Assembly (NCBI GenBank): GCA_964501675.1
Contig: CAZCTJ010000002.1
Span: 1 to 28,987, forward strand
Origin: an uncultured Candidatus Saccharibacteria bacterium
Lineage (GTDB): Bacteria; Patescibacteriota; Minisyncoccia; UBA6257; 2-01-FULL-56-20
DNA: 28,987 bases
Direction: 5' to 3'
A model generated the notes under the pieces. That model did no database searches. It saw only the letters and a list, made by a program, of their open reading frames with translations, and was not told the origin of the DNA. The position numbers and the translations under genes are program-made. Shown here in pieces: positions 5,535 through 28,987 of this stretch. Within the stretch, counting starts at the first letter, position 1. The number at the start of each line of letters is the position of its first letter.

Positions 5535-7174
5535 ACCGTTCCGCCTGGACGCTCACGGTCATTCTCCTCGCGTTCGGGGCCATCCTGCTTTACGCGGCGA
5601 ATCCGTTCTCGGAATCGGACTCCTTTTATCATCTCAAAACGGGAGAGCTCATTTGGGAAACTCGGAGCATCCCCCAGTCGGATCCTTTTTCGTACACCGC
5701 GGAAGGCCGGCCTTGGGTTCCGCACGAATGGCTGGCCCAACTCTTATTCTACGGCATATCCGTTCTCGGAGGACTTCAGGCAGTGGTATGGTTCGCGGCG
5801 CTTCTGGGCGCTTTGACCTATTTCATTCTCTTCCGGATGCTCATCCGCCGCGGGGCGGATCCCGTCCTTAGCCTCCTGCTCCTGTTTCTCGCCGGATTCT
5901 TGACGCTGGAATTGTGGGTCGGGCGCCCGCAGGTGTTCGCGTATCTTTGCCTTGCCCTGCTCCTTTTCTCGCTCGAGAGGTACCGCTTCGGAGGCGGGGC
6001 CATTTATCTGTGGCTTGCGGCGGGGACGATGTGGCTGTGGGCCAACGTGAACGCGAGCTTCCTCTTGGGCCTCGCGGTACTGGGTCTGTATCTCGCGGCG
6101 TCGCTCGCGAAGCGCTATTTTCCGCGCTTGGGCGTTCCGGGGACTTTGCCCGTGCGGAACATGCTTTTGGTCCTCTTGGCGTCGCTCACGCTCTCTTTTC
6201 TTACCCCCGCCGGCTACCAGGCGTTCCTTTATCCGTTCTACATCCGGCCCGCGGTCGCGGCGCTCAAGGTCTACGAATGGCGTTCCATCCTGGAATATGC
6301 GGCGGAGAGCGAAGCCAAGGTGTTCCTCGCGGAAGTGTCTCTCGCCGCCGTGTTCCTCGTCTGGTGGCTGGGGCTCCGGAAGCAGAGCCGGGACCCGATC
6401 CTCCTGCTCCTCATCGCCGGAGCTTCCGTACTGCCGTTCATTTCCGCCCGGCACGCCGGTTTCTGGCCGATTCTTGCCGGATATCCGCTCGCCCTGGGCA
6501 TCTCCGAGATCCTGAAGCCGGTTTATGCGAACGCCTCTTCGAAGAAGCTCTGGGGAGGCGTCGCGTTCGTATTCCTGGTCTTCATCGGAGCGCGTTCGAT
6601 CGGTTTTCCGGAAATGCCCGTGGATCGCCGGGCGGTCCCGGTCGCGGCGGCCGAATTCCTTGCGGAGAACCGGATCCGGGGGCCGCTCTTTAACTTCTAT
6701 AATGAAGGCGGATTCCTGATCTGGCGGTTCTATCCGGAAGAGAAGGTGTTCATCGACGGCCGCTCCGAAGTGTATCCGCCGGAGGTCATAAGCGAATATT
6801 TTGAGATCGCGACCGCAGGCAAGGATTGGGTGGAGCTCGTGGACCGCAAGTACGGCATCAATTATTTTCTAATTTCCTACCGCACCTTGTCCCCCTCGGT
6901 CATCCGCCTGGTCCAGGTCCTGATGCAAAGGAATTGGGTCCTTGCGTATTGGGACGATGCGGCGGTCATTTTCCTGCGCAATATTCCCGCGCATGAGGAG
7001 GCGATCGGGAAATACGGCCTGCGGCACGTGAGCCCGTTCCGTGAGCCGGGGGATATTACGCCGGAGGAGAACATGGCCGCCGCGGCGGAGCTCAAGGTCC
7101 TGCTCGAACGGTCTCCGGAATCGGATGCCGTCCGGGATTATCTGCGGGCGTTCCTGGGCACCCGTTCGCAGTAG
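5531..7174 (+). CDS. Multi-pass membrane protein, about 547 aa, putative GT-C-type glycosyltransferase-like
   Basis: GTG at 5531 overlaps the tkt-C stop, so the listed start at 5393 is likely over-extended. Many TM segments; D-x-FYHLKTGE, DPFSYT...W..HEWL, GRPQ and IDGRSEVY motifs; soluble C-terminal domain. The GT-C assignment is inference. Confidence 0.65.
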   Translation: MNRSAWTLTVILLAFGAILLYAANPFSESDSFYHLKTGELIWETRSIPQSDPFSYTAEGRPWVPHEWLAQLLFYGISVLGGLQAVVWFAALLGALTYFILFRMLIRRGADPVLSLLLLFLAGFLTLELWVGRPQVFAYLCLALLLFSLERYRFGGGAIYLWLAAGTMWLWANVNASFLLGLAVLGLYLAASLAKRYFPRLGVPGTLPVRNMLLVLLASLTLSFLTPAGYQAFLYPFYIRPAVAALKVYEWRSILEYAAESEAKVFLAEVSLAAVFLVWWLGLRKQSRDPILLLLIAGASVLPFISARHAGFWPILAGYPLALGISEILKPVYANASSKKLWGGVAFVFLVFIGARSIGFPEMPVDRRAVPVAAAEFLAENRIRGPLFNFYNEGGFLIWRFYPEEKVFIDGRSEVYPPEVISEYFEIATAGKDWVELVDRKYGINYFLISYRTLSPSVIRLVQVLMQRNWVLAYWDDAAVIFLRNIPAHEEAIGKYGLRHVSPFREPGDITPEENMAAAAELKVLLERSPESDAVRDYLRAFLGTRSQ

Positions 7175-25415: not shown

Positions 25416-28400
25416 ATGTCTAAGAACATTAGGCTGTTTTTCTCCCGGGGCACCGTTTCGGTCCTCATTTTCTTGACCGTTTTCGGTGCTGTGCCGCTCG
25501 GTACCGCCCCGGCCAATGCCGCGGAAGAGATACTGGTGAACTGCGAGGCGCGCACCCAGGAAGGAGCCGCCGGATATGTCGCCGCGGACAGCACTTCCTG
25601 CACGGTGCCTTCCGGCGCGAGCGTTTCGCGTTTGAATCTGGATTATATTTTGGACGATGGGGGAGAGATATCCATAAACAACTCCGTGGTTTTCGGTTTG
25701 CCTCCGGATTACGGGGTGGACAGCGGGAATCGGGACGTTTCTTACGGACTGTCCGGAGGACAGAGCTTCACCCTTAAGGTCGAAGCGCGAAATGCGGTCG
25801 GAGATGACGGCGACCCGGTAGGACCGGTCTATGGCCGTGCCACCCTGCAGGTTTGGGGGACAAGGGTCACCGCTCCTCCGCCCCCGCCGCCCCCTCCCCC
25901 TCCCCCTCCCCCTCCTCCGCCTCCTCCTCCTCCTCCGCCCCCGCCTCCTCCTCCGCCGGGCAATCCGCCCTCGGTGGTCACCTTCAACGCCACCGGCGTT
26001 TCCCAGTCCTCTGCCACTCTGAACGGGAGCGTCAGTCCCAACGCATCCGGAACGACCGCCTGGTTCGAATATGGTTCGACTCCTTCCCTGGGCCAGACCG
26101 CCGGCTCGCAATCCGTTGGCGGCGGAACCTCCTATGTGAACATTTCCACCGCGATCGGCGGCCTCTCCGCGGGTACCACCTATTATTTCCGCGCGGTGGC
26201 CCAGAACGCGAACGGCACCGCTTACGGCAGCATTCTTAACTTCCGAACCTCGGATATGCCTCCTCCGCCCCCTCCTCCTCCGCCGCCCCCGCCCCCGCCT
26301 CCGCCTCCTCCTCCGCCGGGCAATCCGCCCTCGGTTAGCACCCTGAACGCCACTTCCGTTTCGCAGTCCTCCGCCACTTTGAACGGAACGGTGAATCCCA
26401 ATGGCGAGAACACGAACGCCTGGTTCGAGTACGGACGGACCGCCTCCCTGGGGCAGACCGCGGGTTTTCAGGCCGTTGGTTCTTTAAGCTGGCCGCGGAA
26501 CATTTCCGCTTCCTTAAGCGGCCTTACCGCCGGAACCACCTACTACTTCCGCGCGGTGGCCCAGAACCAGCACGGCACGGCCTACGGCAGCATTTTGAGC
26601 TTTACGACCGCGAGCGCTCCGCCTCCTCCCGGCCAACCGATCGCTGATATTAAGGCGGACGGCTCGGACGGTCCGGTGGTGGCCGTGCCCGGAGGTTTTG
26701 CCACTTTGACCTGGACATCATCCAATGCGACCTTCTGCACGGTCATTCCCGGAAATTACACGGGTATCTTCGGATCCCGGCAGGTGAGCGGCATCAGCAA
26801 TGAGGTCACGTATGTCCTGAATTGTACCGGACCGGGAGGCACCGCGAGCGACTCGGTTACGCTCATTCCGCCTCCGCCCCCGCCCCCACCGCCTCCTCCT
26901 CCGCCGGGCAATCCTCCCTTGGTCACCACCCTGAACGCCACGGGCATATCCGAAACCTCCGCGACCCTGAACGGCAGCGTGAACCCGAACGGGTCGAACA
27001 CCAACGCCTGGTTCGAGTACGGGCGGACCACGGGGTTGGGTCAGACGATCGGCTATCAATCGGTCGGCAGCGGAACCTCCAGCCGTAGCATCTCCGCTTC
27101 GGTGAGCGGCCTGCAATCGAACACCACCTACTATTTCCGCGCGGTGGCCCAGAACGCGAACGGCACAACCTACGGCGGCATCCTGTCCTTTATGACCGGG
27201 GATATCCTTCCGCCGCCGGGCAATGCGCCGCTCGTCACCACTCTTAGCGCCACCGGCGTATCCCAGTTCTCCGCCATCCTGAACGGCAGGGTGAATCCGA
27301 ACGGTGCGAGCACGAGCGCCTGGTTCGAGTACGGGCGGACCACTTCCCTGGGACAAACCACCGGCTATCAGTCGTTGGGCAGCGGGAATTTCGAGCGGGA
27401 CATCTCCGCTTCGGTAAGCGGATTGCAATCGAACACCACCTACTATTTCCGCGCGGTGGCCCAGAACCAGTACGGCACGACCCGCGGCAGCATCCTGTCC
27501 TTCTGGACCGGGGACGGGGGCGAGCAGGGAGGGGCTCCCCGGGTGCAGACCTTCAACGCCACGGGTATCACCAGGACCTCCGCGACCCTGAACGGCAGCG
27601 TGAACCCGAACGGGTCGAACACCGACTATTGGTTCGAATACGGCCCCACCACTTCCCTGGGCAGGACGGCCGGGTCGGGATTCTGGGACAATCTTTTCGA
27701 TTCCCTGGGCAGCGGGAATAATTCCGTGAACGTTTCCGAGGCGGTGCGCGACCTCGCGCCGGACACCACCTATTACTTCCGGGTGGTGGCCCGGAACCGC
27801 TACGGCACGGCTTACGGCAACATCCTGAGCTTCCGGACGGAAACCGACGGCGGGGGGCAACTGGGAGCTCCCTTCGCGAACACCAACGCCGCAAGCGGCA
27901 TCACTCAGACCTCCGCGGTCATGAACGGAACGGTGAATGCGAACGGCAGCGACACGACCGCTTGGTTCGAATACGGCCGGACCGTCTCGCTGGGGCAGAC
28001 CGTCGGTTTGCGGTCCGTGGGTTCCGCGAACGCTACGATACCCGTATCCCAGCAAATAACGAACCTGCAGCTGGGCACCATTTACTACTATCGGGTGGTC
28101 GCCCGGAACCCGTACGGCACCGCCTACGGCAACGTGATCGCCTTCCGGACGCAGAACGGGGCCGTGTATACTCCGCCTCCTTCGTCCAAACCCCCCGTCG
28201 GGGGATCGGCCCTGGTCACGGTGAGCGCGAACATCCAGAGCGGCGGCTTGGTGCCCAATATCAGCAACCTGACGCCCAAACCCGGAGAGATACTGACCTA
28301 TAGCGTTACCTACCGGAATCAAGGGCCGGGCAGCGCGACCAATGCGGTTCTGCGCATAATCCTGCCGGCGGAGGTGGATTATCTGGGCTCAAACCCGAAC

Positions 28401-28754
28401 ACCGCCACGGTCTCCGGAAATCTCCTGACCTTCCAGATAGGAACTATCCGGGCCAATCAGGAAGGCACGGTCACGGTCACCATCCGGGTCCGGGACAACG
28501 TTCCGCACGGCACCAATCTCAACTTCCTCGCGGTCATGGATTATCTGGATCCCTCCGGGCGGCCGCAGTCGGTAAGCGCGCCCCTGACCATCCAAGTTCA
28601 AGACCCGAACGGGGTGGTGGCGACCATCAGCGAGACCGGCGGCTTCCTGCCCTGGTACATCTGGGTCGTCATCATCACGCTCTTCCTCGTCATGCTCGCC
28701 CTAAGCTATGTTTTCTACCGCTACGGAAGGAGCAGAAGGGTGCTCGCGGTTTGA
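25416..28754 (+). CDS. Large cell-surface protein, 1112 aa: unknown N-domain, poly-Pro spacers, six FN3-like repeats, one Ig/PKD-like module, DUF11-like domain, C-terminal TM
   Basis: Signal peptide ending ANA; six ATLNGxVNPNG...WFEYG...TTYYFRAVAQN-type repeats; PGEILTYSVTYRNQG..ATNA DUF11-like motif; PWY-TM-LSYVFYRYGRSR. Confidence 0.88.
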   Translation: MSKNIRLFFSRGTVSVLIFLTVFGAVPLGTAPANAAEEILVNCEARTQEGAAGYVAADSTSCTVPSGASVSRLNLDYILDDGGEISINNSVVFGLPPDYGVDSGNRDVSYGLSGGQSFTLKVEARNAVGDDGDPVGPVYGRATLQVWGTRVTAPPPPPPPPPPPPPPPPPPPPPPPPPPPPGNPPSVVTFNATGVSQSSATLNGSVSPNASGTTAWFEYGSTPSLGQTAGSQSVGGGTSYVNISTAIGGLSAGTTYYFRAVAQNANGTAYGSILNFRTSDMPPPPPPPPPPPPPPPPPPPPGNPPSVSTLNATSVSQSSATLNGTVNPNGENTNAWFEYGRTASLGQTAGFQAVGSLSWPRNISASLSGLTAGTTYYFRAVAQNQHGTAYGSILSFTTASAPPPPGQPIADIKADGSDGPVVAVPGGFATLTWTSSNATFCTVIPGNYTGIFGSRQVSGISNEVTYVLNCTGPGGTASDSVTLIPPPPPPPPPPPPPGNPPLVTTLNATGISETSATLNGSVNPNGSNTNAWFEYGRTTGLGQTIGYQSVGSGTSSRSISASVSGLQSNTTYYFRAVAQNANGTTYGGILSFMTGDILPPPGNAPLVTTLSATGVSQFSAILNGRVNPNGASTSAWFEYGRTTSLGQTTGYQSLGSGNFERDISASVSGLQSNTTYYFRAVAQNQYGTTRGSILSFWTGDGGEQGGAPRVQTFNATGITRTSATLNGSVNPNGSNTDYWFEYGPTTSLGRTAGSGFWDNLFDSLGSGNNSVNVSEAVRDLAPDTTYYFRVVARNRYGTAYGNILSFRTETDGGGQLGAPFANTNAASGITQTSAVMNGTVNANGSDTTAWFEYGRTVSLGQTVGLRSVGSANATIPVSQQITNLQLGTIYYYRVVARNPYGTAYGNVIAFRTQNGAVYTPPPSSKPPVGGSALVTVSANIQSGGLVPNISNLTPKPGEILTYSVTYRNQGPGSATNAVLRIILPAEVDYLGSNPNTATVSGNLLTFQIGTIRANQEGTVTVTIRVRDNVPHGTNLNFLAVMDYLDPSGRPQSVSAPLTIQVQDPNGVVATISETGGFLPWYIWVVIITLFLVMLALSYVFYRYGRSRRVLAV
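25875..26906 (+). repeat. Poly-proline tracts of 28, 20 and 13 residues
   Basis: Uninterrupted CCN codons at 25875-25958, 26259-26318 and 26868-26906. Confidence 0.95.
25959..28151 (+). repeat. Six FN3-like coding repeats of about 290-300 bp with blocks of perfect DNA identity
   Basis: 48-bp identity at 26955-27002 and 27576-27623; 44-bp identity at 27112-27155 and 27424-27467. Confidence 0.9.
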
Positions 28755-28763
28755 AGAAGCTCC

Positions 28764-28895
28764 GGCATCCGGCCTGCGGGAACCGGCGTAGCTTTTCTCC
28801 TGCGGAAAAGCTCGCCTGCTTCTCGTCCGACCGGCTCCCTACCACGGGAGACCGAGCCCGGTCGGATTCCGAAAGCTTCCCGCAAACCGGATGCC
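28764..28895 (-). ncRNA. Putative structured RNA or miniature element with a three-way junction; family not recognised
   Basis: 18-bp closing stem that is continuous only on the minus strand (two G-U pairs), plus two long hairpins. Confidence 0.5.
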
Positions 28896-28987
28896 TTCGC
28901 CCTGCGGCGTGCGGGTGGATCTCTCTGATCTGGCCGCGGGGCCGTTCTGCCTCGGATGATTTTGTGTTATACTGACCCGGTTCATAT

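Follow-up and report, generated by a model that had tools for sequence, protein, structure and literature searches.

ERIC/IRU elements of the enterobacteria and the Correia elements (CREE/NEMIS) of Neisseria are structured intergenic repeats of 100-160 bp which lie in transcribed spacers in either orientation and fold as RNA, and ERIC persists across genera. REP/REPIN elements, with RAYT, and PATE elements, from IS200/IS605, have neither terminal inverted repeats nor duplications, and are recognised in the form of a single folded strand. Gyrase and IHF bind to REP/BIME elements. Integron attC sites, which are read as folded single-stranded DNA, conserve structure over sequence and fold differently on their two strands, and large chromosomal arrays of them keep the strand that recombines on the leading-strand template. 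ERIC/IRU and Correia elements are both named in PMC10969869, and Rickettsia palindromic elements (RPE), according to the summary given there, often sit in frame in unrelated housekeeping genes, to which they add a conserved peptide.

The window analysed here is a stretch of 28,987 nucleotides which constitutes contig C2 of the genome of a tiny groundwater bacterium of the Patescibacteria. This 0.73-Mb genome (G000; 726,914 bases in 86 contigs) is an estimated ~95% complete. We find that an interspersed repeat, structured, gene-less and uncatalogued, occurs across an order of Patescibacteria, and that the interval 28764-28895 of the window forms the core of one of its copies.

Fold, borders and neighbourhood of the window copy

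The original prediction had placed in this interval a three-way-junction RNA of 132 nt with helices P1, P2 and P3. All three helices are present in the sequence (Table 1) and make up the minimum-free-energy fold on both strands of the window, at -85.8 kcal/mol on the minus strand (z = -8.42) and -79.3 kcal/mol on the plus strand (z = -8.29), with none of 200 shuffles as stable in either case. While the fold was confirmed, the limits of the element were not, since the repeat unit is longer, at 154 nt. A search of the G000 genome detected two further copies with 97% identity (C18:1344-1497 and C14:16861-17014); identity among the three starts and stops at the same bases and the flanks are unrelated, which defines the unit.

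Table 1. Features of the repeat copy and its neighbours (window coordinates)
Feature	Coordinates	Strand	Evidence or remark
Surface-protein gene, 1112 aa, Fn3 and DUF11 domains, C-terminal membrane anchor	25416..28754	+	ORF list, Pfam
Whole repeat unit, 154 nt	28759..28912	- (model orientation)	97% identical copies ending at identical borders
3' flank motif GGAGC (minus-strand reading), directly after P1, adjoining the stop codon	28759..28763	-	Recurs in most copies, several genera
P1 closing stem (19 bp), 3' arm	28764..28782	-	Folding; 14 of 14 modelled P1 pairs doubly changed, 48 copies
P2 hairpin, conserved loop	28785..28816	-	Helix 7: double changes in 9 of 10 pairs
P3, long interrupted arm; internal loop conserved, tip variable	28818..28876	-	Helices 2-6
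P1, 5' arm; bears two changes private to the strain, which form G-U pairs in the minus strand	28877..28895	-	
5' extension of the unit: mini-hairpin (4 bp, 4-nt loop), then GCGAA, then P1	28896..28912	-	Common to the G000 subfamily
Terminator-like hairpin between repeat and uppS promoter; host sequence, outside the repeat	28937..28954	+	Terminator scan
Extended -10 box of uppS, TGnTATACT	28965..28973	+	Sequence reading; uppS start confirmed
uppS start codon, first two bases	28986..28987	+	Gene runs on in contig C73

The element had been called unassigned, and the Rfam comparison agreed: at curated gathering thresholds the repeat matched no family, and relaxed searches returned chance-level matches only (window, E up to 10; 15 other loci, E up to 5).

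Two sequence details had been taken as telling. A CC/AA mismatch in P1 exists as described, but is private to the window's strain and is no strand signature: the two sister copies, and contig L099, taken from a different assembly of this population and matching the window at 99.4% identity along 2.5 kb, have GG where the window has AA, giving a perfect helix on both strands. L099 carries the repeat at the identical position, with 15 differences from the window, five of them inside the 154-nt unit; a single metagenome scan yielded this one strain variant, with the site filled. The minus-strand heptamer CCGCAGG does occur at 28773, 28799 and 28901, but it is common in the window, with 15 matches against 7.9 expected, and a diverged copy on contig C1 does not retain it.

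On the plus strand, the surface-protein gene (TGA stop, 28752-28754) is followed after 4 nt by the repeat, whose model strand (defined below) is antisense, and then by the terminator-like hairpin, the extended -10 box and uppS. Contig C73 overlaps the end of the window by 55 bases, and L099 bridges the junction. The box lies 12 nt upstream of the uppS ATG (28986), a spacing at which the uppS mRNA would be leaderless or nearly so, without a Shine-Dalgarno sequence.

A minus-strand TATAAC (28971-28966) had been suggested to drive a single transcript of about 200 nt converging on the surface-protein gene. The hexamer is there, but it is the complement of the plus-strand extended -10 box of uppS, and no consistent promoter is found upstream of the copies; the single minus-strand transcript is not supported. 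A two-hexamer scan of the window returned no promoter on either strand, and no T-run of the kind that marks an intrinsic terminator follows P1 on either strand of the window. We infer that the surface-protein transcript carries the window copy as a passenger in its 3' region, where the copy would at most add a stable 3' structure.

Copies and covariation across the order

Copies and homologues, which the original prediction had left to be sought, turned out to be multiple in G000 and widespread among its relatives. We built a covariance model on seven copies from five genomes, oriented as the minus strand of the window (the model strand), with which the window copy scores 118.6 bits. The model finds at least 12 copies in G000, three close and nine diverged, and more than 535 matches in 81 of the 125 genomes of the host's family, the other 44 having none. 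Across the order, matches occur in 73 of 151 sampled genomes and in ~22 of 32 families; the distribution is patchy, with whole families lacking the repeat. The copy load reaches 28 or more per 0.6-1 Mb genome. A search of the literature returned no description of the repeat; the family is new to Rfam and to the literature searched, and RPE-like behaviour as such is already known in Rickettsia. A phage origin was rejected, as 14 viral contigs were picked out by the core pattern and none of them matched the covariance model.

Among 48 aligned copies, 95.9% of cells were paired, compared with 65.7% in column shuffles and 33-47% when partners were slid, and double-sided changes were seen in 37 of 42 pairs. 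Homologues show compensatory changes in all three helices, as would be expected if the predicted fold is real. In the diverged copy on C1, the P2 and P3 stems differ in sequence and pairing is retained. Judged from the alignment, the fold of the repeat is kept by selection.

The sequence of P1 is specific to each copy, yet its length is 19 bp in most copies, and only the innermost 4-6 bp are conserved between them. The junction, an internal loop of P3 and the loop of P2 show conservation of sequence. Outside P1, most copies have a small 5' hairpin ending in GCGA(A) and a GGAGC-like 3' motif, and hairpins of this kind that resemble the 5' extension of the window copy are found in other genera too. 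Each unit consists of a small 5' hairpin, a copy-specific closing stem of ~19 bp, a conserved three-way junction carrying one long interrupted arm and one short hairpin, and a short 3' motif. We also observed a subfamily among copies of a sister species (G002, contigs C10, C1 and C4; L023, L088, L199), where a conserved module of ~90-100 nt takes the place of the P3 tip.

Orientation, insertion sites and turnover

In the model orientation the copies contain 104 G-U pairs as against 27 A-C mismatches. The model strand is ~5 kcal/mol more stable than its complement in 39 of 44 copies, and in 26 of 27 copies of G217, a genome of another family that was left out of model building. Preference for the minus strand thus holds for the repeat family (better fold in 65 of 71 copies), though not on the ground first given for it, the CC/AA mismatch being a strain-private polymorphism. 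Deamination bias would be expected to favour leading-strand G-T wobbles, contrary to the pattern observed here.

Usually the model strand is antisense to the genes of the host and forms part of the C-rich (lagging) strand. In G217, cumulative GC skew along a 608-kb contig reaches its lowest point at ~285 kb; by this measure 72% of genes are on the leading strand, and 20 of the 27 copies have their model strand on the lagging, C-rich one. Between tandem genes of G217, 15 copies are antisense and 4 sense. All 14 copies on two contigs of a further genome (G192) have the model strand on the C-rich strand. Copies flanked by lagging-strand genes number only seven and split 4 to 3, and the effects of replication and of transcription on the bias could not be separated. 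Stop codons were rejected as the source of the antisense bias inside genes, open frames being equal on both strands. On one contig of G192 (C3; L168-L177), we noted that GC skew is negative along 200 kb though 77% of long ORFs are plus-strand; either genes there are mostly on the lagging strand, or skew is a poor guide.

The better fold of the model strand in 65 of 71 copies, the conservation of core and loops across the order, and the antisense placement of most copies, as expected of a convergent gene, could also be read as the marks of an independent minus-strand sRNA gene with many paralogues, acting in trans, for instance by sponging up a protein with the conserved loops that contain GGA. 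We hold this to be very improbable. A promoter at a fixed distance upstream is missing in G000, in G217 and at other loci, the candidate in the window being the uppS -10 on the other strand, and no terminator follows, so that the promoter and terminator at fixed positions which mark a stand-alone sRNA gene were not seen. Moreover, several copies lie ~12 nt from a neighbouring start codon, which leaves no room for a promoter, and some lie within open reading frames and introns.

Many copies sit in the gaps between genes. Four copies in G000 end directly at the upstream edge of sigma-70-type promoters (groES, rpsA, tuf and one more). The -35 hexamer was considered as a part of the repeat and rejected; it belongs to the host, because relatives keep it, and is conserved in sister species. 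Eleven copies sampled across the host's family end within ~10 nt of the stop codon of a convergent gene, and some copies have a neighbouring start codon ~12 nt from P1. In G217, the four sense copies between tandem genes all lie between a canonical terminator and the next promoter, and antisense copies directly follow stop codons, with several stem ends rich in A and T runs. Ribosomal RNA operons are also occupied: copies antisense to the rRNA lie in the 23S-5S spacers of four genera, where the stems of the G071 and G053 copies differ by three compensatory double changes, and of two further antisense copies, one adjoins a group I intron in a 16S gene (~position 794) and the other lies within an insertion in a 23S region.

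Several features near these sites were recorded separately. Many -35 hexamers in G000, G002, G003, G005 and G013 are preceded by a C run (CCC, then TTGACA), which may be a lineage-specific upstream promoter feature. A DnaA-box-like 9-mer was rejected as a part of the repeat; it is a feature of host promoters, the promoter of an oligolysine micro-gene being one example. On contig C19 of G000 (~5580-5800; L074:2576-2800), downstream of another copy, such a 9-mer precedes an extended -10 promoter and a leader, after which comes an oligolysine micro-ORF of 19 codons that has a terminator to itself; the same arrangement occurs on contig C1 of G013. Unusual rRNA gene structures were seen in G041:C21 (L040), where a 16S gene has ~1.2 kb of insertions including a group I intron, and in G005:C4 (L046), where a 23S match spans four tRNA genes.

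Other copies lie in frame within protein genes. The mnmA gene holds in-frame copies in four genomes, which represent three genera, and two reading frames are used among them; a PIG-L gene holds another copy; in G217, copies are in frame in the genes for a class-V aminotransferase and a phosphoglucomutase (PGM/PMM) and in mnmA, where the copy is sense. Pfam domains read across the inserts in all four families, and the copies add ~40 residues to mnmA, phosphoglucomutase and the cysteine desulfurase-type aminotransferase. Such copies are not expected of a dedicated RNA gene. Of the two identities first proposed for the element, an undescribed ncRNA or a structured miniature mobile element, the second is supported, because the repeat is multicopy, widespread and absent from Rfam, has a compensatory fold, and occurs in frame inside protein genes.

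The intergenic placements invite a different view, in which the repeat would be a cis-acting RNA element serving the host, one that ends, insulates or stabilises transcripts, or provides an RNase III-type processing site, in genomes whose intergenic spacers are very short. Copies lie exactly between a stop codon and the next promoter; the groES, rpsA and 23S-5S sites stay filled across species and genera; P1 forms a long perfect helix in either orientation; and in G217 the tandem-gene sense copies all follow canonical terminators, while antisense copies come directly after stops, several of them with A/T-run-rich stem ends. We nevertheless consider this rather unlikely. In-frame copies in at least four enzyme families cannot be terminators, both orientations are found, and the strand that is usually transcribed is the worse-folding one. 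In the window no U-tract follows P1 and a separate terminator-like hairpin is present at 28937-28954, and 44 of the 125 genomes of the family do without any copy.

Comparison of orthologous sites pointed to turnover of whole units. The site upstream of groES is filled in all three species of the genus, and that upstream of rpsA in both species that could be checked; at these sites the stem and core variant is species-specific and is joined to the promoter at the identical base. Since the sites of the three near-identical G000 copies are filled by other variants in relatives, these copies look like the product of whole-unit replacement or homogenisation and not of first-time insertion, and gene conversion rather than transposition could account for them. 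G049 and G050 have different subfamilies at two orthologous loci, and in G050 one remnant has shrunk to a bare stem. At the uppS site of a sister species (G002:C26, L090), we found an unrelated palindrome, with 13-bp arms around ~95 nt and no match to the model. The loop of mnmA holds different structured inserts in five species of one genus, and in G070 a bare palindrome occupies it. Between the TGHY and KDQSYFL motifs, this loop ranges from 30 to 69 residues among relatives (L081-L085, L042, L044, L063, L065); the inserts are unrelated palindromes or repeats in different species, which marks the loop as an insertion hot spot.

The G217 stems and the G070 palindrome suggest that the repeat may insert into the loops of pre-existing hairpins; as the G050 remnant indicates, such hairpins can equally come from internal deletion. 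Every orthologous site examined held some structured element, so that no clean pair of filled and empty sites is available and the insertion event itself is never directly seen. Orthologous copies, such as the spacer copies of G071 and G053, retain the fold through compensatory changes, which speaks for selection acting locus by locus; pure parasitism would predict less than this.

Exchange of whole units at apparently fixed sites, with identity ending exactly at the unit borders, would also suit a site that acts as DNA. By analogy with the protein-bound and single-stranded sites described above, the repeat might serve as the binding site of a nucleoid protein, a topoisomerase or a site-specific recombinase, or be read as folded single-stranded DNA. 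Its orientation follows GC skew, with the model strand on the C-rich strand in the 20 of 27 (G217) and 14 of 14 (G192) copies noted earlier, its fold is strand-asymmetric, and a DNA-level function would ignore coding context. We regard this possibility as unlikely: no partner protein was identified, and the 4 to 3 split among lagging-strand-flanked copies leaves the bias inseparable from the direction of transcription.

Mobility and relation to known repeat families

No mobilising enzyme was found among the families tested (Y1, TnpB, IS110 and one reverse transcriptase), and no copy with a gene inside it was seen. A Y1 transposase (PF01797), TnpB or IS110 was not detected in G000. Y1 transposases are present in 22 of the 125 family genomes, including some without the repeat, and are absent from the copy-rich G009, G117 and G053; an IS200/IS605, TnpB or IS110 partner was accordingly rejected, Y1 being uncorrelated with the repeat across the 125 genomes. 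A retro-element was likewise rejected, as the only reverse transcriptase of G000, a 520-aa orphan, is found in just 3 of the 125. A DGR template/variable repeat arrangement was discarded too, the four inter-copy differences all involving A in both directions and the repeat lying outside the coding region.

These searches brought up some unrelated elements. The orphan reverse transcriptase (G000:C25:6528-8087; L077:1306-2868) has RVT_1 at residues 66-258 and a C-terminal half of 260 aa without assignment, and no group II intron RNA is nearby. G129 and G100, with genomes of ~1 Mb, have eight to nine identical IS200-type Y1 transposase genes, indicating active IS in otherwise IS-poor relatives, and about a dozen genomes encode a second class of proteins, 225-260 aa long, that match Y1 weakly.

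The reading that we consider probable, with a fair measure of doubt, is that the repeat is selfish, structured and RPE-like, and that some factor reads its conserved junction on one folded strand. The observations behind it are the recent near-identical copies, compensation in all helices, the strand-asymmetric fold, the orientation bias, the in-frame inserts, the variants held by sister species at the same sites, and decay to simple hairpins. The lack of a transposase, the stem of fixed length and free sequence, the asymmetric fold and the biased orientation together point to a step in which one folded strand is read. Such a repeat would behave as selfish DNA, settling where the harm is small: in stop-to-promoter gaps (the situation of the window copy), in rRNA spacers, in introns, and, in frame, in enzyme loops that tolerate an insert. 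Its conserved junction would be a cis-acting structure for a trans-acting host factor, which would read one folded single strand, most likely of DNA, during copying or exchange.

A bolder form of this proposal, to which we would give only a small chance, sees in the repeat a new class of mobile cassette that encodes no protein and is recognised by its three-way junction, with the 19-bp stem as a ruler; it would be copied or swapped as folded single-stranded DNA at fixed docking sites by a housekeeping enzyme of the host, with its orientation policed by the replication fork. The enzyme might be a Xer-type recombinase, or a replication or repair nuclease. If true, bacterial repeats would have a kind of mobility not previously described for them, and it would become clear how CPR genomes with few genes can maintain dozens of these elements and trade them with no transposase.

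The genomes of Patescibacteria are among the smallest and most streamlined known, yet a folded repeat persists in them at high copy number, altering essential enzymes, sitting in rRNA operons and filling the gaps between genes. A curated model of the repeat would prevent its mis-annotation as spurious ORFs or candidate riboswitches. The repeat also breaks assemblies, and can serve as a marker to follow the dynamics of strains. New biology would come from identifying the factor by which the fold is read.

With regard to known classes, the hallmarks of a MITE are missing: the arms of P1 are inverted but copy-specific, so that terminal inverted repeats common to all copies are lacking, and the three 97% identical copies have no flanking direct repeat. 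Target-site duplications, which the original prediction had proposed to look for if the element were multicopy, were thus not seen. ERIC/IRU and Correia elements resemble this repeat in the features given at the outset. Correia elements, by comparison, have conserved terminal inverted repeats and a TA duplication, whereas the arms of this repeat vary by copy and no duplication is seen. ERIC is a single imperfect hairpin, while this repeat has a branched fold.

REP/REPIN and PATE elements resemble the repeat in lacking terminal inverted repeats and duplications and in an orientation tied to replication, and recognition of a folded strand would be common to them and to this repeat. Unlike REP/REPIN, however, the repeat has no GTAG/CGTC head, G000 has no Y1, and the distribution of the enzyme does not follow that of the repeat; a RAYT gene does not regularly accompany the repeat. 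The better-folding strand of the repeat is on the leading-strand template, which is the opposite of the IS608 rule if that strand is the active one. The attC sites resemble the repeat in conserving structure more than sequence, in their strand-asymmetric fold, in a variable central part that is able to branch, and in the placement of one particular strand on the leading-strand template. In contrast to attC, the repeat comes without an integrase, attI or a cassette array, and its conserved part is the junction and not the base of the stem.

The closest likeness is to RPE, which in the account of PMC10969869 are also palindromic and gene-less, are ~150 bp long, and have many copies in a reduced genome and no known transposase. 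A gene-less palindrome of 100-150 bp that lies in frame in protein genes, as RPE are defined, describes this repeat family as well, the window copy itself being intergenic. The likeness is one of behaviour only, RPE being from a different phylum. Compared with RPE, this repeat has a conserved three-way junction set on a copy-specific stem of fixed length, and is conserved across a whole order with a bias of strand and orientation.
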